A stretch of 63,162 bases of DNA, filler included, from Ionaspis alba (Eukaryota): the NCBI GenBank assembly GCA_964255285.1. It is 20 parts of 20 records of this genome, joined end to end, with 100 filler letters (N's around TTAATTAATTAA, not from the genome) between each part and the next. Parts side by side here need not be neighbours in the genome. Positions count along the whole stretch, not along the records: positions 3,259 to 6,406 come from CAXUUL010001226.1; 19 more parts are not named here. The stretch is one strand, 5' to 3'. Of the stretch, positions 3,259 to 50,206 are shown one piece after another (within the stretch, counting starts at the first letter, position 1; every line of letters starts with the position of its first letter). Below the pieces are notes generated by a model, which saw only the letters and a list, made by a program, of their open reading frames with translations, did not search any database and had not been told where the DNA came from. Made by a program: the position numbers and the translations under genes.

Positions 3259-3743
3259 CTTGGAGCTGAGTTATACGTGGCTAGGGAAGAGTGTTTTTCG
3301 TTCTGGGATTTCATGGCGTATCCGTGCAGATGCTACGCTGTGATTAGACTGACCGGGAGGATGAAGTGGATCCGGATTGTACATAATTTTTCCACCTGTT
3401 GTTATATTTCTTTGTGAGGAGAGTGATTAGCATGATTTAATTTCAGCTTAGAGCATGAGACCAGTGGAAGATAGAGATGTAACGATCCAATGACCAGATA
3501 TCATAAACAGGAGAAGTGAGGTTTCTTATTGATTGTTAAACATGGGTCACTTCGAGCTCTTCGTTCAATACCCAGTGCCCTAAACCGGAATCTGCCGATC
3601 CCGTTCCTAGGAAGTACGGTCACGGTCCCCAGCCAAGTTGTCCGTCCTTTGGTGGGCTACATCGACTGCCGGTATCTGGCAGCGATGTAGTGTTTTAACT
3701 AGCGGTTTAGATGCTAAGCATAAAGGTAGACTTTGTCTCTCCT

Positions 3744-6014
3744 TCAAGGATTGGACATAATGAGCCAGCTAGTTCCAAATAATTGATTTGCCTGTACCGC
3801 GCAGTCGTAGATACTAGCGTTTCCTTGAACGATACAGTAAAGGGCGCTCGCATCTGTGGTTCCAAAACGCATGAAATCCGCCATAGGATCACCACTATAG
3901 CTTGCAATCGCTCTGGCATCTGACGGAGCATAATCGAGATCTTGTTGGTTCAGCCGCAATTCGCTTGATCCCGGTTTCTTGAATTGTAACTGCCGAAGGT
4001 TACAGGATATGCAGTCCTGCAGCTGATCTTCCAATGGCCGATTCGATGGTTTAGCTCGCGCCGCCAAAGCAAATGCCACAAGGGCTATAGAAACTGCTGT
4101 AGAAATATCACCTGTACTCGGCTGAGTGCAGTGCAGGTAGATTCCAGCGCGGTCACTCCTTAGCGATATCTGAAAGGGGTGATGGTTGTTGATCATTAGA
4201 GAAGGACATTGGGATGTGAGAGAATTCTCTTCGTATAAACTGAACGTCTCGATCTTCCTGCTCCTCGCTGGCAAATATGAGAAAGGAGCCTCCCGAAGAT
4301 GCGTTCGTCTACTGTCTTTCCATTTCAGACTTCCAGGTAGAACAACAATCTCAAATGCTTCTGCGGGTGTTTTCGGTATTTCAAAAAGACCTCTGTAGAA
4401 CGCCACCTGACCACTGAAAGAGAACGCAAGGAGTGAAGGAGGAGGCATATTCCGGTTCATTGTGTATTCATCCAGAGTCTCGAGACTATGCAGCGTGTAA
4501 TTAAAGTATTCTGTCGCACTCACTGTCGATAGATAAGAAGAAAGCAGGGCGCTCAAAGGCCAAGGATTGATGATTTGCAGATTGTTTTGATCGTCTAGAA
4601 CATCTAGGAGAAGTGGGCTTTGACGATATCCTGTGAAACTATGCTGGGTAGCTTGTCTCAAGAGAAGTCGAGCGACATGAAGGGCAAGATTCACAATTCG
4701 ACCATTTTTTCTCTTTTCCCGATTTTCCATATCAAGTGCCCCATTAAGCTCGACGCTGTCAAGGTGTCGAGTCACATCAAGCCAAGTCAATCTCTCCATA
4801 GGTTTAATGAGTGAAGTGAACCTCTTGTTTCCCAGATATGATGAGATTTCTGCAACGTGACTCCGGTCATTCGTGGAAGGTGGCCAACCAAAAGCTGTAA
4901 ATAATGGATCTAGCTCTAATTCAAATGATGGTCGACAGATGGCACGCAGGCAAAGATCCCCAGTTCGTTCTTCTTGGTTCTTCCTCCGTGTCGCATATCC
5001 CGTTAGCCACAGATGGTCCAATCCTGCGAGAAGAAATCCGGATGCCAGTATGCGAGCAATTTGCAGATCAGCTTTGGTTAAAGAAGCTTGAACAGATAGT
5101 CTTGACATCGAATATACCATCTCATCCGAAACCATATCTGGCAAAGAATCACGCATATATTCGTCCGAAAAGTTGACCTGGATAGGACTGTAAAGTTGAT
5201 CGGCTGCATACCAGTGCTCCAGAGTCCAGGGATCAACTCCTTCACCTTGCCGCAGTATCAAGCAAATCTTAGCAGCAGAATTTCCTACTATGACCTCGCC
5301 ACAAGCGTTCAGAACGGCAACGTCTTTGGGGCACAGCCAGCACAATATGCTAATGAACCAGATGGCGGACCGTTGACCTGTGACTTTAAGCTGTCGGACT
5401 GCACTGTCTCTCAGAGCAGTGAAAATGGCAAGCAATATCTGAGAGGCTTCGTCGGGGAGAACCGGCATATAATATTCTGGGCAGTTCAGATTTTGCAAAG
5501 CAAGGTTCTCCACAATTGGGCTAATGATTTTGCTCGCAGCGAATTCATTGGATAGCAGATTCACGCTGTGACCTTCGATTGATTGTATGAGAGTACACAG
5601 CTGCGTACTCGAAACAGGGGTTGTATCCAGACCTCTTGATTGTGCCAGCATCTCGTAAAGCACATCGGCAATATCAGTTGCGGGCAAATGTAGTTTCAAG
5701 ACAGATATCAAAAGAAAGGTCTTCGTTGCAGCTGTTGATTGTCGGAGTTGACTGGATATTCCTCCTGATGAGATACCGAACTGTAGTTTTATGCTGTGGA
5801 GTCGATAGCTTTTGGAGCCTCCCAGGGCATCCACGGCCTTGCCAATAAGATACGGATCCACGATCATATGAGATCCCAAAGCCTCGACCGCGTAAACCGC
5901 TGCAGGCTGAACATCGTCTACAGTAGCTGCACGTATGAGTTCCAACGCCTTCCCGGAAGCACTAAAAATTGAAGACCCAATATCCCATTGAGTTTGAATT
6001 GGCGTCAAGGCCAT
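3744..6014 (-). CDS. Uncharacterised 756-aa intronless protein; homolog of 45417-47591
   Basis: Long ATG-to-stop ORF. N-terminal W-x-I...AAT-x-D-x-VQP-x-A-x-x-A-x-E-x-x-G motif shared with the 45417 ORF. Confidence 0.85.
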   Translation of the reverse strand: MALTPIQTQWDIGSSIFSASGKALELIRAATVDDVQPAAVYAVEALGSHMIVDPYLIGKAVDALGGSKSYRLHSIKLQFGISSGGISSQLRQSTAATKTFLLISVLKLHLPATDIADVLYEMLAQSRGLDTTPVSSTQLCTLIQSIEGHSVNLLSNEFAASKIISPIVENLALQNLNCPEYYMPVLPDEASQILLAIFTALRDSAVRQLKVTGQRSAIWFISILCWLCPKDVAVLNACGEVIVGNSAAKICLILRQGEGVDPWTLEHWYAADQLYSPIQVNFSDEYMRDSLPDMVSDEMVYSMSRLSVQASLTKADLQIARILASGFLLAGLDHLWLTGYATRRKNQEERTGDLCLRAICRPSFELELDPLFTAFGWPPSTNDRSHVAEISSYLGNKRFTSLIKPMERLTWLDVTRHLDSVELNGALDMENREKRKNGRIVNLALHVARLLLRQATQHSFTGYRQSPLLLDVLDDQNNLQIINPWPLSALLSSYLSTVSATEYFNYTLHSLETLDEYTMNRNMPPPSLLAFSFSGQVAFYRGLFEIPKTPAEAFEIVVLPGSLKWKDSRRTHLREAPFSYLPARSRKIETFSLYEENSLTSQCPSLMINNHHPFQISLRSDRAGIYLHCTQPSTGDISTAVSIALVAFALAARAKPSNRPLEDQLQDCISCNLRQLQFKKPGSSELRLNQQDLDYAPSDARAIASYSGDPMADFMRFGTTDASALYCIVQGNASIYDCAVQANQLFGTSWLIMSNP

Positions 6015-20089: not shown

Positions 20090-22545
20090 ATGATGCCGAA
20101 TCTCTCGCAGGAAGAGGCCCGCAAATTTATTGCAGGCGTGAGTGAGTACAATGGCGGCATCGCCGATGAGGACCGAAAGCGTCTGGCGGATCAGTTTCCT
20201 TCCGCGTATCGAGCATTGCAAATGACGCGGAGACAGCTCGCGAGTTCCATCAAGATGTATTTTAATTTATCCTTTAGAGGATTTGGCTGACCTTTGCAGT
20301 GTTGTCGATAATCTTTACTCGAAGGAAACTCGTTTTTTGTATGAGCTGATACAGAACGCTGAAGATAACTCTTACTCTACAGCCACGACGAAAGGTGAAA
20401 AGCCATTTCTAGCCTTCAGAGTCTATCCAGACAAGATTATCATTGATTCGAATGAGGACGGCTTCTCGGAAAGCAACATTAGAGCTATTTGCTCGATTGG
20501 TAACTCTACGAAGAAACACAGTGCGGGATACATCGGCGAGAAGGGCATCGGCTTCAAGTCCGTTTTCAAGATTGCAAAGAAGGTGCACATCCAATCCGGG
20601 CCGTTCTCCTTCGCATTTTCGCATACTCGAGAGAACGACGACGATGGTCTGGGCATGATCACACCGTATCATGAGGATGCTCAAGAGCTTGCAGCGGGTG
20701 TGCGCACGCGCATGACACTGACACTCCTAGATTCTACCAAATTCGAGGAGCGGGCTTCTGAATTTGGGGGGGTCCCCGACACTTTCCTAATGTTCTTGAG
20801 TCAATTACAGCAATTATCCATAGAGTTGTACCCGCCGAACGAGGCTCCTACGGTCACGCAATACTCAAAACAGGAAACCAAAGAAAATGGGCTCTACACG
20901 ACGTTCCTTACGAAGACTACGCGCAAGGGTGAGGAAGAGTCATCTTTAGAACAAAAATACTACACCATGAAGAGCGATCTTCGCGATCTCCCTTTCGACG
21001 AGGCAAGAAAAGACAAGCAAGGAAACAGTATTGACCAGGCTACAGTCGTTCTCGCTTTTCCAGTGAACGAGCACGGTGAACCAGTCCTCAAGCAGCAGTA
21101 TACCTATGCTTTCTTGCCCCTGCGTCGAGTAGGATTCAAGTTCCTGATCCAATCTGACTTCGTCACCCAAGCCAATCGAGAAGACGTAGTACACTCCAAG
21201 AGGAACCAAGCTGTTTTAGAAGGGATCGCCAAAGCATTTGCGGACGCCATGGTTGTGTTCTGCCAAACTCCATCGCTCAGGTACCAATGGATGAGATGCC
21301 TTCCTGGAGCTTTTATTTCAGATGAATATTGGGGGACATTGTGGACGCTGGTACGTGAGAAGCTCAAGCAAACTCCACTTTTAGAATCATGGAGTGGCAA
21401 CGGTCTCTACATGCCTTCGGAGCTTGAGAAGCTATCCGAAAAGGATATCGACCACGATGGAAATCCTTTGTTACCAGATCTAGAGGGCGCAGAAGTTTAC
21501 CTCTCACCGAAGTACAAAGAAGAAGACTACCAGATACTCAGACGCCTGAGGACAACACCACTTCAATGGAGCAAGCGTATCGATCGTCTGGAAGCTGATC
21601 TCCGCAACTCTGGCGGCTCGAAATGGAGATGTGTGAGAAATAATACCGATTGGCGTACTAGGATCTGCAAATTGCTTTCGGAAGCCTTCACCGTGAAATC
21701 TCAGGACTTGCTCAAGCAACAGGAGCGCACGAAAGAGCTTGCCTTGATTCCATTGTATGACGGTAGGTGGGTATCCGGCACCTCTGGCACCGTGGCATAC
21801 TTCCCCGAGACTGTTGGTGTTTCCATTCCTGCAGATCTCGGCCTCAACCTTGTCGACCCTAGGGCTGTCGAGAATGTTGTTTGGAAAGAGCTTCTTTCAA
21901 AATTAGGTGTGATGGACTGCTTGCCGGATGCTGTGGTCAACTTGATCAACAAACGTTACGATGTTAGACACTTTGATAATTTTGACATGTTCAATGCTGT
22001 TGCTCACATCCGATATTTGTACTGGTTCCTTCCGAAAGACCTTACGAGTTTGGCTCCTCAGATTCGACTTGTCAATCAGCACTGCGCCCTGCTCAGGAAA
22101 GACCAGTACATGTACTTCCCGGATGGAGAAGATGACTACAGTCCATCAAAACTTTTTGAGCAAGATTCCCAGCATCCTGGTCACCCGGTGTCTTATCTAC
22201 ATGAAGACTATATTAAGGCGGTTGACCCTGAAGTCATTCACAATGGCTGGTCGTGGACGCGATGGCTTGAAGTTGTAGCCAGGGTCCACCGAACACCCGT
22301 GCTCTGTGCCAAAGGCTCTCGTGAATTGTCGAAAGAATTCAAGTACATCATGGATCATCGATCGGATAGACTGTTGGGAACTCTGAAGCGCGGATGGGCT
22401 TACTATCGCCTTATGATCACCGATGACGTGAAGGGAAAGCTGTGGAACAGCGATGTACTTCTCGAAAATGGACTCAGGACATCGCTATGGTCCACATTCC
22501 TGCCCCTTCCCAAGCTTAAGCAAATTGCTGCGGAGCTCCGTATTG
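20090..22545 (+). CDS. Sacsin/NO VEIN-like GHKL (HATPase_c) protein (3' truncated)
   Basis: Exon 20090-20256, 43-nt intron, exon 20300-22545. Motifs LYELIQNAEDN, NEDGF, IGEKGIGFKSVF, YAFLPLR..GF.FLIQSDF...ANREDV. Confidence 0.88.
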
Positions 22546-24039
22546 NNNNNNNNNNNNNNNNNNNNNNNNNNNNNNNNNNNNNNNNNNNNTTAATTAATTA
22601 ANNNNNNNNNNNNNNNNNNNNNNNNNNNNNNNNNNNNNNNNNNNNCCGCATCTCGCCCCCGCCCCCGCCTCAAGCACGCAGACAAACTATTCCCGCTCTC
22701 CCGGCCGATCATCCTGCCACTGCGCCCAATGAGCACATAACCGTGCTTTTTCGCGAAGGAGCCGCTCGTGACGGGATGCGCATCCTGCGATTGCGCTGGC
22801 GGTGCAGCGTGAGCTGCGGGGATGTGGCGCGGACTGACTCTTGGCTTTTGGAGCCGGGTCTAGGAAGAGTAGGCGAGAGTGAAGAAGAAGGAAGGGAAGG
22901 TGGATTGGGGGACGGATGACGTGCATTTGGGGGATAGGTTGGTGGTAGTGGGAGGGCTGGTGAGACGTGGTATTTTTGGGGAGGAAGAGGAGGAATATGG
23001 GGGCCGGATGAGCTTCCTTGTTGATCGAACATTTTCTGGAGTGAGCCGACTAAGAAACTTCCTTCTGCGGCCCCCAAATGCTTCGACGGGCACGGACTTG
23101 TTGCATCCTGGCAATCCTTATGGGGATGATGCTTAAGGCAGTGGCATCAGATCGGGCAACCTTATTGTTCTTTGGCTATTGCGGATCCTCCCGATGGTCA
23201 GGTTGCACAAAGGGTCGCTAGGCGGCGTGGTAGGCGTTGCCTTGTGGGGGCCGTTTTTGAGGGGTCAGAGGTTGATATGTGGGAGGTTTGTTTGTGGGCT
23301 CGTGTTTACCCTGACTTCTCTTCTGCTGACTTTGAAGGATTCGAGGCGACGTTGAAAGGATGAGCCGAGCGGTTTGTGAGTGGTTAGGTTGGGAGGTTGG
23401 GTTGAGGCATGCAGTTGCCTTTTCACCAGCAGGATTGCATGCTGCAGGTAGGTACTGACCGCGTACATTTGCATTCAGGGAAGACGTTTCCGCTTTGTCG
23501 CCATCAACTGTCGGCTGAATCCTACCCCGTTCATGACACGAGGATTAGGATTATCCTCAGACGTGGTGCGGCTATTTGAGGTGACAGCGCTTCAGATCTT
23601 GCTTACCTGCCTGATATTGCCTTCATCGTCAGTCCAAGCTCCGTGCAAGGAGGTCGTACATGTTACGAGTTTGGGATCACTTCCAGCGTGAATGTGCTGG
23701 TGCATCAGACCAGTTCATTACGTTGTCAACGAGATTTTGTACTCGTTCAATGCCTATGCCTGATTTTGCTTTTCGGATTCTAAGCCACAGCATCACATAG
23801 CATTGTGATTGCCATGTCAGCCTTGTCACTTTAGCAACCACATTTTCCTCTGTCGGAGCTATTCGTGTCGTTCTAGATAGAGCGTATGTTCGCTGTATCT
23901 TGTCGAGTATCAACTTTCACCCACTGACACAGAACATGTGCACACATGTTCCTTGCTGAAGCAAGGTCATTTCATATGTCCAGAGCCCATGTTTCTTACG
24001 TATGGAGAGGAAGTGATTGATATGAAAATTTCTCTCTAT

Positions 24040-31731: not shown

Positions 31732-32185
31732 TGAGGGATTGGGTGGTGTGGTCTCATTTCAGGAACGAGACGGAGATAACTCTAAGTCGTATTGTTTAAT
31801 CTTGGATACAATCCATCGAGATTAGCGAGATGAGACTATACAAAACGATCATCCATCACATACGGTTAACATGGTTATGTGGTAGCTATCATTGTAGACA
31901 TTCATCAATGCGGTCCGATTTCGAATTCTTTTCTTCTTTCCACAAAATCACAGTATTACCTAGGTATGTGATGAAATTCCTCCATGGCTCCAACCTTGCA
32001 CCTCTGCAGCATGACGACAGCGCTCCTCAGCCTCTTTCTCCTTAGCGTGTGCTTAGTCTTTCCACCGGTGGGACATCCCGCCCCTNNNNNNNNNNNNNNN
32101 NNNNNNNNNNNNNNNNNNNNNNNNNNNNNTTAATTAATTAANNNNNNNNNNNNNNNNNNNNNNNNNNNNNNNNNNNNNNNNNNNN

Positions 32186-35064
32186 GTTTGGGGGACTGGT
32201 GGAGGTGGGAAGCGGGGGCTTTCGATTATGGAGGAGGTGGAGACCGTGAGAGGAGGGGAGCGGCTGCGGTTTCGGCGGAGGTCGCGGGGCGCGTGGCTGG
32301 TGGTTGCGGCAGCGGAGCGGATTTTTCGGAGGACAGGTTTTTTGACGGGTGGACGGCTGTGGTCTTTTCTTTGTTGGCCGCTGAAGAAGCTTGTTGTTTG
32401 GGGGGTGGGACTTTGGGCGCCTTCGCTGATGCTGATGGGTAGCTTTCTTGAGCTTGCACGTGTAGGGACGGGGAATGGAGGAGCTGGAGCTTGAGCCGGT
32501 TTGGAGGCTTCAGCGGTGGGAATGGTAGGTGCACTTGGACTTCTGGGTCGCTGGAAATGTGCTGCTGTACCACTCGAGATGAGAGCTGCTCTTCGAATAT
32601 CGGGCTGCTTGCCTGTTGCAACAGGTGTAGGACGTTTGACATGCTTGTGCTCCTGCACGACCTTCGAAAGGGCTTGTTCCTTGCCCAATTGACGGGGAGT
32701 TGGACGATGACTAGACTTTGTCGGTAAAGGTGGACTAGGATTATCCTCTTTTCCAGACTCGAGACGGTCTGCCACGGAATCTTCTGTCTGCGGTACAAGC
32801 TTCCACGAGTTCTTGACTTTTGACAGAGTCTTCCTGATCGGCTCCTTGTCCCCAAAGCTGTCATCGCTGAGGTCAGCAACGTCAATGGCGGGAATCTCTC
32901 CATCATTGGCACTATCGAATCCAGCAAAGAGACTGCCTGAACGAATTGGTCGTCGTATTGGAGATTCCTTGATATTCTTAAGAGGACCATTATCGTTATT
33001 CCCAGGATATGCGTCGTAAGTTTCTTCAGCTATAACCTCTGGACTAGGAGTCTTCCTTTCCTTGGATGGAGTTTCCGGAATCCCAGGCACCACAGGGGCT
33101 TTCCGGGTCGGTTTCGGAGGGATAGCCAACGGTTCTTTGTCCACCTTCTCAGGAGCTGGCGAAGGAGGATTCGAAGAGATAGCCGAAGGTAACAAATGTG
33201 CTGGTAGCTTCACTGGACGCTGATCAACTCGAATCTCTTCTGTCTGTACGGATATAGACCGTAACGAAATCGGAATATCAATTGAGGCCTGGCAACCAGC
33301 ACTTTTCGTCCGTGGTGGAAGTACAACGCTAGTTCGAGGCGTGTTTGGGGCCGTCACTGGCGGATGTATCTCGATCGTCGGAACATCCATAAACGTGGCA
33401 GACTCCTCGCGGGTAGGTGCAGGAGGTGTCATGGGTAGCATTTCATCCTCGCTAGTTTGCGTGCTTGCTATCTTCATCTCCACGGGCTCCGAGATGTGTT
33501 CTGGCGGAAAGGTAGCCTTGTCTATGGTCTTTGGGGTATCCGGTGGACTGAGAGGTTGTTCGACTGTTTGGCAGGATGAGGAGACCATTGCTATTTTCTC
33601 AGGCATTGTTGGAGCTGGTAAGGAAGTTTGCTTTGATGTCGTTTGTTCAACTACTGCAGGTTCCCTTGACTGTTCAGCATTCGAGACGGCTGGAGGAAGA
33701 TCATCGGCGTTTGGCTCTTTAGCTTCATCCAAAGGTTCCTGTGGTTGTAAGATGGGCGATGGCGGTGGAGAGAATTGAGTCGAGGTGTCAATGTACAAGA
33801 TCTTAGGCAATAATGTATCCTTTCCGACAACCTTGTCATCATGTTTGTCTCCCGCATGTGGGCTACGACTTCGGTTGGATTCTTCTGACGGTCGATCATC
33901 CTCCTCAACTGAGAGTCCCAGAAGCCTTCTTGCCTTGGAAGATTCACGATGTGATTGGGCAGAGAAAGGTCGTGGTCGATGGACGGCTTCCTCAGGTAGC
34001 GCTTCGGGTGATGTATATCCTGCTTCACCATCACTTTCCTCTGCGTTTTCATCTTCATCTTCGTCGAAGTTGAGCTCATCCGCCAGACTCGCACCGTGGA
34101 AGGCGCCACCCTTGAGCATACTCACGTTGGAGAATCTCACGCTGCGACCTTCTCCGTCATGGGTACTATTGCTGTGCTCACGGTGATGACCACGTCCGCT
34201 CATGCGGGAATCAGAACCCCTACCACTCATGCGAGAGTCACTGCCTCTTCCACTCATCCTGGAGTCAGTATTTCTCCCGCTCATTCTCGAGTCAGTACCC
34301 CTTCCATACGAGAGCTCATCGACCTTATCCTCCATCTCGGCTTCATGACCAAGGATCACGGAACCGTGGGCTTGTTGTGCAGCTTCGATCTCCGTCAGAA
34401 GGGTTTTCAATCGACCTTCCACCACATGAATCTTTCGATCCAGAGCTCTCTTCTCAGTATCCCAGTTCTGTCTATCGCTCTCCCATAGATTGTGTGTCCT
34501 TTCTGCATCCTCCTCTTGACTTCGAAGCTTCTTCTGAGATATCTCCAGTTTCTTCCTGGTCTCTGCAAGACTTTCAGTAATTTGATCCCTCTCCTTTGCG
34601 ACATCTTCTATGGCTGACAGTGTTCCACCTTCGAGCATTTCCATTTGACGTTTCATGGTTCGGTTCTCTTGCAGGCTGCTCGCGATGACGTTATTGAGAT
34701 TGGCATTGTCACTTTGGGCGGTGTGTAGATTCTCCTCCAGACTGACCACCAAGCTATTCTTGCTCTCCACCTCCCGTCTCAATGACAAGATTTCCGAGAC
34801 AAGATTCGCATGGAGGGTGGGCGTGAATCGACGAGGATCGAGAGGAGAGATCTTGTCATCTATACTCGGGTCTCCTTCCGGAATACCGTTGAAGTATGAA
34901 TCACCTCCTGGCGGGAACGGCGGAGGAGAGGAAGACATTGCTGGAGAAGCTGAGCCATGACGCGAAGAACGACGTGACAGCCCACGAGATGGTGTTCTGT
35001 AGGGAGTGTCGGTGGGAGTGGGTAAGGCATAAGCCGAATAGGTATGATCCATCTCGACGGCCAT
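32186..35064 (-). CDS. Large coiled-coil/disordered protein, probably Num1/ApsA/Mcp5-like cortical anchor family (3' truncated)
   Basis: ISPLDPRRFTPTLHANLVSEILSLRRE followed by a long heptad region, then a P/S-rich region. The diagnostic C-terminal PH domain would lie beyond the contig. Confidence 0.55.
34189..34305 (-). repeat. In-frame 27-bp x4 repeat encoding GR(G/N)(T/S)DSRMS
   Basis: GRGTDSRMSGRNTDSRMSGRGSDSRMSGRGSDSRMSGRG in the translation. Confidence 0.9.
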
Positions 35065-35618
35065 CTTGCCGAGTGTTCCTCCCTCAGTCAGGGTTAATCC
35101 TCCAACAGTCCCCAATTATATGTGGAATACTCCGAGCTTAGATTCGATAAAGATACTCAGCGACGACAATGCTCTGTTTGGTCGCGCACAGACAGCAGCA
35201 TCTCTGGTCGTCGACACGCTGTTGATATGGATGNNNNNNNNNNNNNNNNNNNNNNNNNNNNNNNNNNNNNNNNNNNNTTAATTAATTAANNNNNNNNNNN
35301 NNNNNNNNNNNNNNNNNNNNNNNNNNNNNNNNNCCACTCTTTGCTGCTCAAGGCCAAGCACGCCAGGTCCACTGGGCTGCGGTATTTTAAGACTTGTCGA
35401 CTGGTCTGTAGCTTGCTGATCTGCTGATGCACAATAGGTTCACCGGAATCCGTTGGTTTTGTCACTGACCAGAGTGGTATGATCGCTCCTGTGCCAGCGA
35501 GAGCGGATTTCCTAAGACCGGGCATTGAGGAGTTCCTCGTCAACCCTATGCATGTCACGTCTGATTTTTAAGAGGATTGCGGCGCCTCTCTCGTGGTTTT
35601 CGAAGAAATATCCCTGAG

Positions 35619-45416: not shown

Positions 45417-47591
45417 ATGAGCAAGATGCAGATCGCAGCGTCATGGACGATCACTCAGACAGCGACCGACCTGGTGGGAGTATCAAAGGGGATCCTGGAA
45501 GCAGCGACAAGTGACAACGTGCAACCCATTGCCCTGCTTGCCGCTGAGAAGTTCGGAGCAACTCTCGCCATGTCATTGGAGACTTGCCGGAAGGTGGAGA
45601 TGCTGTGCTCTCAATCCCATCAGTCGACCGTCATCAATACGTTGAAGGCCTACGTGGGCTACAAGAAAGGAGATAGTGGTTGGCAGCTGGCCCAAAGCGA
45701 CTCCGGGGTGCGTTTCCTCGGGCTAGTGGCGTGTCTCCTTACCATGGATCATTGGATTGCGGCTGGAGCTCTCAGTGAGTTGATCACGGAGACAGCGACG
45801 GATCGAACTATTCTGCCGACTGTTCATCAGCTGAAACAGCTCATGCATGCCCTGGACTATAGGTTAGCAAGATCGGGCTTTGCCGATACTGTTCTGGGGT
45901 ATGGGATCTGGCTGGATCACCATGTCCAAAAGGTTACTATCTCGACGCCATCGCCGTCGAAGAAAGTTGTTGTAGAGCTTGTCAAGGCTATGTCAAGCCT
46001 TGGCCGGCTAGGAGAAAACCGGAGAATGCGTGTGCGAGTTCCCGAGAAACAAGCTCCGTGGATAATTGCCTTTGTCAAATACTCCTTTGGATTACCACCC
46101 TCAGTTTTCCTGGGAGACGAACATCTTTTAGTCCAGGCCGACTCCCCAATATCAATCAATGTTGTCGCTGAAGCAAAGAACAATGACATTGAAATTGTTT
46201 TCCTTGACGAGCTTGGAGACATTTCGGAACTGCTGGCTGACCTTCCGGATGGCATGAAAGAAATGAAAGGCATGATAAGCGTAAGAACCTATGCGCAGAA
46301 GATCCTCCAATACGTAGGTGTCGAATCCAGTATACAGTACCGGGCCTGTCTGGAGATCTTTCCCTACGGATGTTATATCGTTCTCAGGGACCCGCAAATC
46401 AAGAGTGATAACATTTTCAAGGTTATGGCCCCGCAGCCCAGCTTTAAAATCCGTATATTCGAGGTTGATGCTGTTCTTGGTTCGATTTTCCCTGCTGCAG
46501 ATGAGGTCTCGCAGACACTCGCGGAATTTCTTGGTTCAGAGCGTCCAGTGCCTTTAAAGCCACTTCCTGAAGGATCTAAGATCGAAAGTCTCCCCACGGT
46601 GGTTGCGGCGCGTAGGCTAATCTGCTCAACGTGCCCTTGCGAAAAGTGTCTTCCAACGAGCAACAATCAGTACAACAAGTGCAAATTCGATGAATTTCTG
46701 CTATATGTGAGTTACTGTATCGTACGAATTCTCACCATTAGTCTGCTCGTCCCAGGAGATCCTGAGGGTGTTTTGGTACGCTGGAGATATTCTTCACACC
46801 CTGATATTAATGACCCATCCACAGTTGGAGTGCTCAGATGCCTCATGGAGAAGCAAGCGCCGAATTTTTCAATATACAAGTTTATCGGATTGACAAAGGA
46901 CCTGCTGGATCACAAATTCTCTCTTGACGTAGCAGATACATGGATTATGAGCTCCTACCACGGACAAACGATCTTTCCCCAGCTCCTTGAAAGTCGCGTT
47001 CCACGGAAGACAGGAATTCTCCGGATGGTATGTGCTTCTGGATCTCTTTACTACAAAGGCGAGCCACACAAGCTCGTCGTGGGGGCGGGCGACGACATCA
47101 ATATGAGCAAGGAAGACAGTATGAACTCACACGAAGAAGAAATACAGCAATCCAGCTCTGAAGCACCTTGGCTGCCTCTCATCCCCACAGATGCCTATCA
47201 AGGATGTAAACTAATATGGCAAATTCATATCATGAAAAATCGTTTGCACTTGTCCGTAAGCGCGACATCCTGGCAGCACAGCTTAAGTCGGAATCCAATA
47301 AGAGCTCTTTCAGCAGCATCGCAGTCGATTTTCGTGGACTGCAATCACGATCGCATGGCTGAAGCAAGTATAAATGGTACCAGTCCAAAGCTATACAGAA
47401 CTTCGCCTAGAAGGCCTACTCCTAAAGTTATTGCTAAATGGGGCATTGGGCTTGTTCAGAGCAACGAGAATGAGCTGATGAGGTTCTTCTCGTTGACATA
47501 TGGTACGCCTGGCGTGATCAGAGGAGACGCATGTTTGGATTGTTGTTACCAAGTATGTCGGATCTTAGATCGGCGGTTCATCATTTGCTAG
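45417..47591 (+). CDS. Uncharacterised 724-aa intronless protein; homolog of 3744-6014
   Basis: Long ATG-to-stop ORF. AATSDNVQPIALLAAEKFG motif. Cys clusters CSTCPCEKC and CLDCC. Confidence 0.87.
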   Translation: MSKMQIAASWTITQTATDLVGVSKGILEAATSDNVQPIALLAAEKFGATLAMSLETCRKVEMLCSQSHQSTVINTLKAYVGYKKGDSGWQLAQSDSGVRFLGLVACLLTMDHWIAAGALSELITETATDRTILPTVHQLKQLMHALDYRLARSGFADTVLGYGIWLDHHVQKVTISTPSPSKKVVVELVKAMSSLGRLGENRRMRVRVPEKQAPWIIAFVKYSFGLPPSVFLGDEHLLVQADSPISINVVAEAKNNDIEIVFLDELGDISELLADLPDGMKEMKGMISVRTYAQKILQYVGVESSIQYRACLEIFPYGCYIVLRDPQIKSDNIFKVMAPQPSFKIRIFEVDAVLGSIFPAADEVSQTLAEFLGSERPVPLKPLPEGSKIESLPTVVAARRLICSTCPCEKCLPTSNNQYNKCKFDEFLLYVSYCIVRILTISLLVPGDPEGVLVRWRYSSHPDINDPSTVGVLRCLMEKQAPNFSIYKFIGLTKDLLDHKFSLDVADTWIMSSYHGQTIFPQLLESRVPRKTGILRMVCASGSLYYKGEPHKLVVGAGDDINMSKEDSMNSHEEEIQQSSSEAPWLPLIPTDAYQGCKLIWQIHIMKNRLHLSVSATSWQHSLSRNPIRALSAASQSIFVDCNHDRMAEASINGTSPKLYRTSPRRPTPKVIAKWGIGLVQSNENELMRFFSLTYGTPGVIRGDACLDCCYQVCRILDRRFIIC

Positions 47592-47835: not shown

Positions 47836-50206
47836 GTGGCGAGGATTACAAGCTGTGCGCCGCACTACATCTCAGAGCCTGGAGTCAGTTATCCAAAGCA
47901 TGGCGGAAACTTCCAAGCGCAAAATCGAGAGTGAGATCCGACTCAGCAACCTTTATGAATCATGGCTCTTTGCGTTGGGAAGCCGCCAGGTTGTCCATGA
48001 CCAAGAACTCGAACGCCAAATTACTCGTAGCAAAGCACTTAGGGACAAGATGTGGTTTGCATCTGAAGTCAGACATTCCTCTACCTACGAAGATGCCCTC
48101 AACGTCATTCGTGCCTTGAAAGCTATGTCGAAAACGACACAATCCAAAGCCACGGGTGTGACAGCTTGGGCTCGACAACGGCTAAGGAATTCGCTTGGCT
48201 CCGACCGAGCCCAAGCCCAGACTCTTGAAGCACTAGCGGCGCACAAAGACCACGGCGGACCCGGAAAGTTGAGCGATAAACAAGTTGAGCTAACGTCGAG
48301 ATGGCTCACTCGCCAGAGTATTGAGAATTTCTGCACTGGCGAAGAACGAATCCATCGCTTTGCTTTGGAGGTACAGAAATGCACAAATCGATTGGTTGGT
48401 GAGACTCTGCTTGATAGTCCGGTCCTATGGTCTAGCAAGTTGTACCAGCAGGAGAAGCAGGGACTGGGTCGTGATAACGGTTCGGCCGGCTTACAAGGCA
48501 TCTACGATCAAGATTTCGGCAGGAGAGACCCAATGAATCGTCCTCCTGGTCTCCATGACTCCGGATTCATGAATGGTTCTGGTTCTGGACCACAGTGGGC
48601 TCACGCTGGATTTCCCCACTCTATGAACGAGCCCAGAGGGCCACCGTATCCACCCCGGAATGGGACGAGCTTACACATTGACTCACCAAGAGATTTACTG
48701 GTTACAACGTGGGCATCGCAAGACATGGACATAGCTACCACTCTTCCTCGAGGTTGGCGCGCACCACCAAGCCCTATCTCGCCTACCAGTCCAATGTCGA
48801 CGCGACGACTAAGCAACTCTACATCGTCCGCAAAAGGTCGATTTCTTGAGCGACTCAAAAGGACTGTGCGGAGTCTTCTCTTGAGTGATCTAGGATTCAC
48901 TTTGTGGAACGACGGTAGCGAGACAGATCGATGGGTTTCGAATGCTTTGTTGGAGGACCAAATGAATATCACAACTAGACCTCGATCGATTTCTGTTGCA
49001 CTTCAAAACACGGTCCAAAATCTAGAATTGAACGAGCACGAGAACAAGTCCAGTCCTACACTTCGACCGATATTTGGACCCGCAGATATACCAGAAGCTG
49101 GCAGAAGCCGGGAGGTCGATAGTGAAAGTCATCCGCCTCTACCATGCAATACTCTGGGTCTTCAAGAAAGCCAACCCTCCTTCCATTACATCGAGGGTTA
49201 CAAGAAACTTCTTAGTAAATTCACTCTGTCGTGCGACCCGCACTCGAAGTTGAAAGCTCTCTATGATCTTACCCGACTTGCTGCTGCCTCTCAAATTTCT
49301 GAACCAGAGGTTAGAGACCATCGGAATGACTCACCTCCTGAGAATCGTCAACAGGCAGCCAGTGCCCAAAACAATTCAGGAATTCGAGGCGTTGGAGTGC
49401 CAAGAACAAGGCTGACACGATTGGAGGAGGTCATGGCCAATTGTGAAGAACGACGGCTGGTTAGCGTCAAATCTCATAGTCTCAGCGGAAACCTATTGTT
49501 CAACGCTTCGTCGAGTATCAATTCACCACCAGAGGCCGATGCTGAGTCCAACATGCCTTCCGTTCTTCAAGAAATTCTGCGTGATCCTGCTCTTTGCCCA
49601 CAAACTTTGTTCCGAGACCTTCAATATATTGCAACCTTCGTCCCTTCCTCAATCTTGGATCACACGCCCGAAGGCACCGCTTTCTGGACATTCAGTCTTG
49701 CTGCAGTCTCTTTGAAGTCCGACATCTGCAAATCGCTGACTCATCGAGCCAACGAAATCGTGGCATATCACTATGAGAAGCCCGCAACCAGGAACCAAAT
49801 TGAGCCTACAGCCGAGCCCTCCAATACGCACACATCAGATACTCTCCAGAATTTGAAAATCGACCATAACTCAGCACTCCAAACCACCACCCTCGACGAC
49901 GCCGCCCGCCTCTACATCATCTCCGCTCTCGAAGGCGATCCCACCGCCGCCCGCGAGCTCGCTCTCTTCTACCTCATGCCTCCTGAGGGCTTGCCCAGAG
50001 TTACGCTACCGCTGTCTAGAGCTGGAGATGTGTTCCGACCACAAATGGTGGGCCGAGGAGGTGTGGCTGAGAGGCAGCAGGGCAATGGGCTTGATCCGCA
50101 TACTTTTGCTTTAGCCTTTCATTGGATGGAATTTGCGGCGAATGCCGGCGATGTGGATGCGAAGACTTTTTTGAAGAATAATGGTGATTTGGGGAGGGGG
50201 TGGTGA
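47836..50206 (+). CDS. C-terminal ~790 aa of a fungal protein with a possible VPS9-like helical region and Sel1-like end (5' truncated)
   Basis: Long open frame. DPHSKLKALY, LFRDLQYIA.FVP, EGDPTAARELALFY, AFHWMEFAANAGD.DAK. Domain labels are tentative. Confidence 0.55.

Follow-up and report, generated by a model that had tools for sequence, protein, structure and literature searches.

Two distant paralogues in Ionaspis alba belong to an undescribed family of proteins of filamentous ascomycetes

The DNA considered here, called the window throughout, is a stretch of 63,162 nucleotides from Ionaspis alba (GenBank assembly GCA_964255285.1). It contains two long open reading frames (ORFs), ORF1 at 3744-6014 and ORF2 at 45417-47591, which are very distant, functional and mostly intron-free paralogues of one undescribed family of proteins of about 720-830 amino acids (aa). 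Judged on sequence, what is new is a real, ancient and undescribed family, which divides into two clades and whose architecture is clear.

The window is made up of 23 sequence pieces, which form about 20 contigs or scaffolds with lengths falling from 3158 to 2964 bp. The joins between pieces consist of 44 N, TTAATTAATTAA and a further 44 N, and runs of 100 N also occur inside three scaffolds. ORF1 lies on the minus strand, is complete and uninterrupted with 756 aa and a stop codon, and takes up most of the contig at 3259-6406. ORF2, on the plus strand, is likewise complete and uninterrupted, with 724 aa and a stop codon, and takes up most of the contig at 44717-47735; the two are thus on separate 3-kb contigs of this N-joined window. 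The second Met of ORF2 (45426; 721 aa) agrees with the database gene call and with the relatives, and is probably the true start. An earlier note on this DNA had described both genes as intronless in an intron-rich setting. This description holds, as several other window genes are broken across frames in the manner of intron-bearing genes, whereas ORF1 and ORF2 are single ORFs that match the length of their relatives.

Direct comparison of the two proteins detects their relationship near the N-terminus. BLASTP was significant for residues 1-108 only, with 29 of 108 residues identical (E 8e-6), and the Smith-Waterman score of 89, compared to 40.7 +/- 4.2 for shuffled sequences, was reached by 0 of 200 shuffles. 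With the first 150 residues removed the alignment was not significant (z 1.2; score reached by 20 of 200 shuffles), so that the shuffle-tested pairwise alignment proposed in the earlier note stands for the first 108 or so residues and fails for the remainder. That note had also claimed two real ORFs, collinear from end to end. Profile-profile alignment confirmed this: the profiles, alignments of the relatives of ORF1 (14 sequences) and of ORF2 (13 sequences), matched with a probability of 99.4% and an E value of 1.4e-21 over 687 columns, end to end. Cut profiles compared with hhalign gave E values of 9e-17 for residues 1-150, 1e-5 for 151-300, 2.4e-9 for 151-756, 4e-7 for 500-756 and 2e-7 for 500-620; residues 301-520 (E 0.026) and 620-756 (E 0.05) were not significant on their own. 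An independent alignment of 86 sequences placed eight of nine sub-blocks, out of the ordered blocks listed in the note, in identical columns; the last triplet, WLI/FII, was offset. The third to sixth of those blocks represent true homology, which is provable through profiles only.

A phmmer search with ORF1 of 1.84 billion cluster representatives at 50% identity found 213 proteins at E <= 1e-3, of which 144 were at <= 1e-10 and 45 at <= 1e-30. Members are mostly 720-830 aa long, and the distant matches align chiefly to query residues 5-270. Full-length relatives exist, with E values down to 1e-186 and beyond: ORF1 has 14, down to 29% identity, and ORF2 has 13, down to 26%. Among named relatives of ORF1 the closest belong to Xylographa, Thelotrema and Caeruleum, which makes a lichen-forming lecanoromycete the most likely source of the genome. 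After the protein of a second haplotype (P0002, described below), the nearest relatives of ORF1 are only 36-43% identical, and a homologue search with the 86-sequence profile found no protein beyond those 14. Two copies in the window had suggested a large family. This was not borne out, as a family hidden Markov model (HMM) run over 844 six-frame window ORFs matched ORF1 and ORF2 and no third copy (next best E 0.59), and as the representatives number 213 in 1.84 billion.

Named members are found only in filamentous ascomycetes (Pezizomycotina), in five classes inside the NCBI clade 'leotiomyceta', the lineages having been checked for five taxa. Among fungi of lichens they occur in Xylographa, Thelotrema, Caeruleum, Circinaria, Letharia, Sarcosagium, Piccolia and Candelina; the other named carriers are Hyaloscypha variabilis, Neocucurbitaria, Zymoseptoria tritici, Fusarium torulosum and a xylariaceous fungus. 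There are one to three copies per named genome, and all named members are annotated as hypothetical or uncharacterised. A FastTree phylogeny of 109 rows placed ORF1 among the 76 rows of clade A and ORF2 among the 33 of clade B, and the branch that divides the clades has a length of 1.65 and a support of 100. ORF1 and ORF2 thus stand on opposite sides of the deepest split in the family. Both clades are present in this genome and in H. variabilis; Thelotrema has two members, both inside clade A. Since Hyaloscypha carries both clades, the duplication that gave rise to them would be older than the split of Lecanoromycetes and Leotiomycetes.

The earlier note had called the family unrecognised, and the database searches agree. 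Pfam gave 0 families for ORF1 and ORF2 at E <= 1. Among 48 members it matched nothing in 46 and gave sub-cutoff matches in two, and among 60 members at E <= 1 it gave 19 weak families, each in one member only, with none recurring. A match to DUF1896 in one member (23.1 bits, with a cutoff of 25) was sub-cutoff and was taken as chance. NCBIfam and PADLOC gave no family match for five members, the sole match being at E 0.12. In sequence searches of the PDB with profiles A1, A2 and A4 the best matches were a designed helical repeat protein (E 0.044) and uS15 (E 1.1). The best ESM Atlas scores were 0.83 for the whole of ORF1 and 0.86 for residues 1-270, all under the lead level of 0.9, and the named matches were unrelated large helical proteins. 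Scans of prokaryote genomes (profiles A1 and A2) and of viruses (A2) found no relatives, these scans being pattern-seeded and of limited sensitivity, and a metagenome scan with profile A1 gave no match. The Pfam scans of the two ORFs and of the 48 and 60 members contained no match to a transposase, reverse transcriptase, nuclease or kinase, and no fusion to a known domain, be it of the death, NLR or enzymatic kind, was seen among the 48 and 60 members. A literature search, which was not exhaustive, found no published description of the family.

Conservation along the protein is uneven. It peaks in residues 1-150 (1.8-2.3 bits per column) and 211-240, falls to a minimum of about 1.0 in 270-510, and rises again in islands at 511-570 and 691-756. 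The N-terminal module, residues 1-150 of ORF1 (5565-6014, minus strand), carries the motif AAT-x-D-[DN]-V-Q-P...E-x-[LF]-G and the invariant G47 and G80; the homologous module of ORF2, supported by BLASTP and by the cut profile, is at 45417-45866 on the plus strand. A second conserved stretch of ORF1, residues 181-270 (5205-5474, minus), includes F198, G213, W219, W226, P229 and W263 and a hydrophobic segment at 217-235. The fastest-diverging body follows in residues 271-510 (4485-5204, minus), where the two haplotypes described below are only 64-88% identical per 50 residues. The island at 511-570 (4305-4484, minus) contains G-Q-V-A-F...P-G-S-L-K-W, with G535 and the invariant G561; residues 513-548 of ORF2 (46953-47060, plus) are homologous to ORF1 532-567 by profile alignment. 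The conserved C-terminal end of ORF1, residues 691-756 (3747-3944, minus), reads RFG...QG-x-ASI-x-[DE]-C...W-x-I.

Clade B has two cysteine clusters that are not in clade A. The first, C-x-C-x2-C-x10-11-C, is at residues 403-422 of ORF2 (46623-46682, plus); C403, C405 and C408 are invariant in the clade and C419 nearly so, in the numbering of P0015. The second, A-C-L-x-C-C-x3-C, lies near the C-terminus at residues 705-714 (47529-47558, plus). As a guess, these clusters might be a zinc or disulfide staple. Directly after the first cluster comes the most hydrophobic segment of ORF2, residues 427-445 (46695-46751, plus; Kyte-Doolittle 19-residue mean 2.16), which may form a buried helix or span a membrane. 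Two 19-residue segments of moderate hydrophobicity are present in each ORF. No signal peptide was evident when the first residues were inspected, in agreement with the earlier note. There are no internal repeats among 10 segment pairs compared by hhalign, all at E >= 0.079, and Chou-Fasman propensities gave no usable secondary structure. Only G47, G80 and G561 are invariant in the 86 sequences, and W226 and G535 come close to invariance. Among well-conserved polar columns, all but S296 and C738 lie within residues 1-140 (D33, D34, Q36, E44, S93 and Q138). Because the invariant residues are glycines and polar conservation sits in the N-terminal module, a scaffold or binding protein would fit better than an enzyme; invariance of glycines only argues against an enzyme role.

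These genes are functional and under purifying selection throughout, since both whole-gene and windowed ratios of non-synonymous to synonymous substitution (dN/dS, omega) stay well below 1. Whole-gene dN/dS was 0.16-0.44 in 10 close clade-B pairs from metagenome loci; an 11th pair was saturated. In 40-codon windows pooled over seven pairs, omega was 0.17-0.22 in residues 1-140 and 0.45-0.53 in residues 300-420, 440-500 and 540-600. A better conserved N-terminus on a fast-diverging body, as the earlier note had described it, is therefore seen both in bits per column and in pooled omega, and the body may be relaxed or partly diversifying. At the 35 metagenome loci with a match to the family HMM, the gene is in one uninterrupted ORF at 29 and split by a frame change at six; strict GTRNGT..YAG intron candidates were found in only one of the six (L029). 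Directly upstream of one frame-split family gene there is an uninterrupted ORF of 1070 aa without a Pfam match (L017:1770-4979, plus strand).

A second haplotype of the ORF1 contig was found in a public run, X1, whose contigs contain 96% of the words sampled from the ORF1 contig, and which may be the source sample. X1 covers the contig at 3259-6406 in its reference form at a depth of 79-90 and in a variant form at 42-53, about half; a second run, X2, has the reference form only, at a depth of 2-4. The variant differs from the reference at 20 of 247 bases in 5372-5618, at 18 of 205 bases in the 3' flank (3563-3767), and at 49 of 513 bases, with two gaps, over the 5' flank and the beginning of the gene. 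Of the 133 differences 40 were listed, and the 38 codons in which these fall all encode the amino acid found in P0002. This protein of 749 aa, whose contig is 3067 bp long, is identical to ORF1 at 614 of 756 positions (81%). Between the haplotypes, codons 133-214 have a dS of 0.24, a dN of 0.044 and an omega of 0.18. In blocks of 50 residues the two proteins are 86-94% identical as far as residue 300 and 64-82% identical in 300-700. The visible indels (+2, -62 and -21) turn 3148 bp into exactly 3067 bp, the size of the P0002 contig; because this arithmetic fits exactly, the two contigs look co-terminal, as an assembly bubble between shared flanks. Two X1 records extend past the ends of this stretch, the longest record being 78 kb. 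A local island of old alleles would give such a pattern, as would equally a second related genome or a hybrid or chimeric thallus at about 2:1, and it is taken only as a hint of the former.

The genomic setting of the family was surveyed in a metagenome scan seeded with clade B, which gave 36 loci, 35 of them with an HMM match. After removal of near-duplicates (L001, L011, L012 and L033), 32 independent loci with about 229 kb of flank remained, all of clade B. Pfam scans of the flanks covered 125 of 235 ORFs of at least 130 aa in 15 loci and 56 of 81 ORFs of at least 90 aa in further loci. There is one family gene at each of the 35 matched loci, in flanks of up to 10 kb, and no neighbour gene is conserved across loci. 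At three loci (L007:1319-4687, L008:403-3112 and L010:9149-12636) the DNA is 84-90% identical, and the common part is the gene with 186-636 bp on each side. The neighbours differ, being GH47 and a haem dehydratase, HET and Kelch, and an MFS transporter. Homology to L008 ends 207 bp past the stop codon, within an A-rich stretch. No terminal inverted repeats were found at the ends of the shared blocks or of the window contigs. The pattern could reflect retro-copying or rearrangement.

In Neurospora crassa there are 69 HET loci, which are clustered near chromosome ends and are non-syntenic (available text of PMC4540973). HET-domain genes lie near four of the 32 independent loci (L005, L008, L023 and L035), at 0.24-3 kb, and NACHT-ankyrin NLR genes near two (L002 and L019); most of the other annotated flank neighbours are ordinary metabolic or cellular genes. 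The genome of N. crassa is about 41 Mb in size, and with 69 HET loci reported in it, well under one HET gene would be expected per 229 kb. An enrichment of HET and NLR genes near family loci, at six of 32, is thus suggestive, although the soil fungi involved may be richer in HET genes than the N. crassa comparator. HET and NLR seeds compared with the window ORFs gave a best match no lower than E 0.18.

Two further observations were made at these loci. At L005:7-285 (plus strand) an ORF matches the HET profile over positions 1-54 only (E 7.8e-10). This truncated ORF, which may be a HET relic or an exon, ends 240 bp upstream of a clade-B family gene on the same strand, whose protein is 62% identical to ORF2 in the best segment. 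One metagenome (contig prefix Ga0335072) has three different clade-B members on three contigs (L002, L016 and L019), two of which (L002 and L019) adjoin NACHT-ankyrin genes.

Tentatively, the family may act as a dispensable recognition or signalling scaffold in the discrimination of kind or non-self, or in another intragenomic or interindividual conflict. The earlier note had put forward allorecognition, cell death or conflict as candidate functions. We hold the scaffold role to be possible, with a confidence well short of even. The protein would be cytosolic, as the missing motifs and inspection of the N-terminus suggest, and not an enzyme. The N-terminal module of about 150 residues and the 181-270 stretch would be the common working part, for anchoring or signalling, and the faster-evolving body would confer specificity. 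The genes would share rearranging genome compartments with HET and NLR genes. Weak hints of such a role are the 81%-identical second haplotype, the loss of synteny between close copies and the HET or NLR genes near six of 32 loci. The rise of omega from about 0.2 to about 0.5 outside the N-terminus speaks for it as well, as does the finding that just two Z. tritici strains are in the 90% cluster of that protein.

There are partial likenesses to known incompatibility systems. As with the partner genes of HET-domain genes (het-c/pin-c, un-24/het-6 and mat/tol), a HET gene is within 0.24-3 kb at four of 32 loci and a divergent second haplotype is present; unlike them, 28 of the 32 loci have no HET neighbour in the scanned flanks, and orientation and distance vary. 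A conserved N-terminal module on a variable remainder also recalls the N-terminal domains of fungal NLRs (HeLo, HeLo-like, Goodbye and SesA/SesB). In contrast to those proteins, the variable part would be a collinear globular body and not repeats, and no member was seen fused to NACHT or NB-ARC.

Several results weigh against a recognition role. No 40-codon window has an omega of 1 or more. Two Z. tritici strains differ by four residues and one 21-aa indel, and a comparison of two H. variabilis strains over 546 aa gave 94% identity; in both cases the variation appears unlike the deep allelic classes of het or doc loci. Within the ORF1 contig the flanks are as diverged as the gene itself, and the second haplotype would be accounted for equally by a second related genome or by a hybrid or chimeric thallus at about 2:1. 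The enrichment of HET and NLR genes, suggestive as it is, comes from clade-B loci only, from partial flank scans and from an unmatched comparison. The terms 'scaffold' and 'cytosolic' are putative and draw on the lack of known motifs and on a look at the N-terminal residues. Pfam gave no sequence match to HeLo, HeLo-like, Goodbye, SesA-type or gasdermin domains for either ORF or for 60 members at E <= 1. The HET domain (PF06985) was rejected as an identity for the family, with 0 families for both ORFs at E <= 1 and no HET among the 19 weak families of the 60 members; an NLR or STAND identity was rejected likewise, as neither NACHT nor NB-ARC occurs in the 48 and 60 members.

Many of these points are expected if the family is an ordinary lineage-specific structural or regulatory protein, weakly constrained past its N-terminus, and the second haplotype an orthologue from a second related fungus in the thallus. 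This explanation is held to be just as possible as a recognition role, with the same confidence. It agrees with purifying selection everywhere, with an old family kept in five classes, with the near identity of the Z. tritici alleles, with the many housekeeping genes beside the metagenome loci and with ORF1 flanks that have diverged to the same degree as the gene. In Letharia, thalli that combine sub-genomes at about 2:1 have been described (available text of PMC10512270). It is less easily reconciled with the patchy, small distribution (213 representatives in 1.84 billion), the non-syntenic close copies, the identity of only 36-43% between ORF1 and its nearest relatives beyond the second haplotype, the HET or NLR genes near six of 32 loci and the co-terminal haplotype contigs.

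The lack of introns, the patchiness and the changing neighbourhoods would be explained if the gene travelled in a selfish or mobile unit of about 2.7-3.5 kb, as its cargo or its sole gene; a retro-copied or transposed gene or a driver of the toxin-antidote type would be examples. The uninterrupted ORF at 29 of 35 loci fits such a unit, as do the three loci L007, L008 and L010 with only the gene and 186-636 bp on either side in common, the end of L008 homology in an A-rich stretch 207 bp after the stop codon and the presence of only two Z. tritici strains in the 90% cluster. We consider it unlikely, given the absence of terminal inverted repeats at block ends or window contig ends, of DNA repeats common to the 23 window pieces and of any transposase, reverse transcriptase, nuclease or kinase match; there is one copy per locus and no further copy in the window, and base composition is native. 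The GC content at third codon positions is 0.44 in ORF1 and 0.52 in ORF2, compared to 0.47-0.65 in 10 other window ORFs, and neither ORF has a signature of repeat-induced point mutation. A transposable-element protein was rejected on these grounds, with no Pfam match to a transposase, reverse transcriptase or YR.

A toxin-antidote driver invites comparison with SPOK of Podospora. The available text of PMC6660238 describes for SPOK a PD-(D/E)XK nuclease motif at about 219-240 with a QxxxY motif, a C-x3-C-x13-C-x5-H-x7-H cluster and a C-terminal kinase domain with a catalytic Asp. The present family resembles SPOK in its long single-ORF genes of similar size (SPOK domains reach residue ~700), its uneven spread among fungal taxa and, in clade B, its mid-protein cysteine cluster (PMC6660238). 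The defining motifs of SPOK are absent. For the nuclease, no D, E or K at 150-330 is among the best-conserved columns of the 86 sequences, and no nuclease was found by Pfam. In place of the Cys-His cluster, the pattern in clade B is C-x-C-x2-C-x10-11-C, which no conserved histidines follow, and clade A has no cluster. For the kinase, 60 members gave no Pkinase-type match at E <= 1, and no Asp is conserved in 500-756. By these comparisons of sequence the family is not SPOK.

The closest system by description is that of the DOC-1/2/3 'greenbeard' proteins of N. crassa and Sordaria macrospora, regulators of MAK-2 signalling in the discrimination of kind before fusion. According to the available part of PMC4831770, these are highly divergent paralogues of 828-920 aa, DOC-1 and DOC-3 have no identifiable domain, and one or two transmembrane segments are predicted for both DOC-1 and DOC-2. 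SmDOC1 binds MEK2 and MAK2 (available text of PMC13557503). The present family, compared by description only, is similar in size at 720-830 aa, domain-less and deeply divided into clades, with two hydrophobic segments in each window ORF. The doc-1 and doc-2 genes are in one genetic interval, and their allelic classes are about 35% identical (available part of PMC4831770). In contrast, no second copy was found within up to 10 kb at any of the 36 loci, the sole allele pair here, from one sample, is 81% identical, and the Z. tritici alleles are nearly identical. The two window copies, on separate 3-kb contigs, may or may not be linked. In the same part of that paper, the authors' BLAST search found DOC homologues in Sordariales only.

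A joint reading would make the ORF1 locus a balanced, possibly trans-specific kind-recognition locus, with two haplotypes in one thallus that differ by a silent divergence of 0.24 and by 19% in protein over an island of about 3 kb with flanks otherwise identical; the family would be a Pezizomycotina-wide superfamily that gave rise to the Sordariales DOC proteins, with clades A and B acting together. We think this quite unlikely. Improbable, too, is the simpler proposal that the family is a wide superfamily of the DOC proteins of Neurospora and Sordaria. Finally, although no RNA data sets containing the ORF1 contig are listed, the notion of chance open frames or dead genes is refuted by full-length relatives with E values down to 1e-186 and beyond and by dN/dS well below 1.

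Elsewhere in the window are ferrochelatase, MUS81, Dbp10, FAN1, mitochondrial carrier, SSRP1 and IPK genes. Two long uninterrupted ORFs, of 993 aa at 32137-35115 (minus) and 768 aa at 47900-50206 (plus), matched nothing in Pfam at E <= 1e-5 or among PDB sequences at E <= 0.01; neither is related to the family of ORF1 and ORF2, as the family HMM does not match them. At 20226-22598 (plus) a stop-to-stop frame of 791 aa, uninterrupted up to the contig end, matches the sacsin domain PF25794 (E 2.5e-10). A scan for bacterial promoters and terminators gave chance-level results only and is irrelevant to a fungus.

There are, then, about 213 clusters of ascomycete proteins of about 750 residues without a family, a structure or a paper, and their carriers include lichen fungi, a wheat pathogen, a Fusarium and the ericoid-mycorrhizal Hyaloscypha. 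If the family is an ordinary cellular protein, it would still be worth a Pfam entry, guided by the N-terminal module, the variable body and the cysteine clusters of clade B. If it serves in kind recognition or conflict, it would be a new type of protein for the biology of non-self in fungi, and would provide the first candidate individuality locus in lichen thalli, in which genetics is almost impossible.

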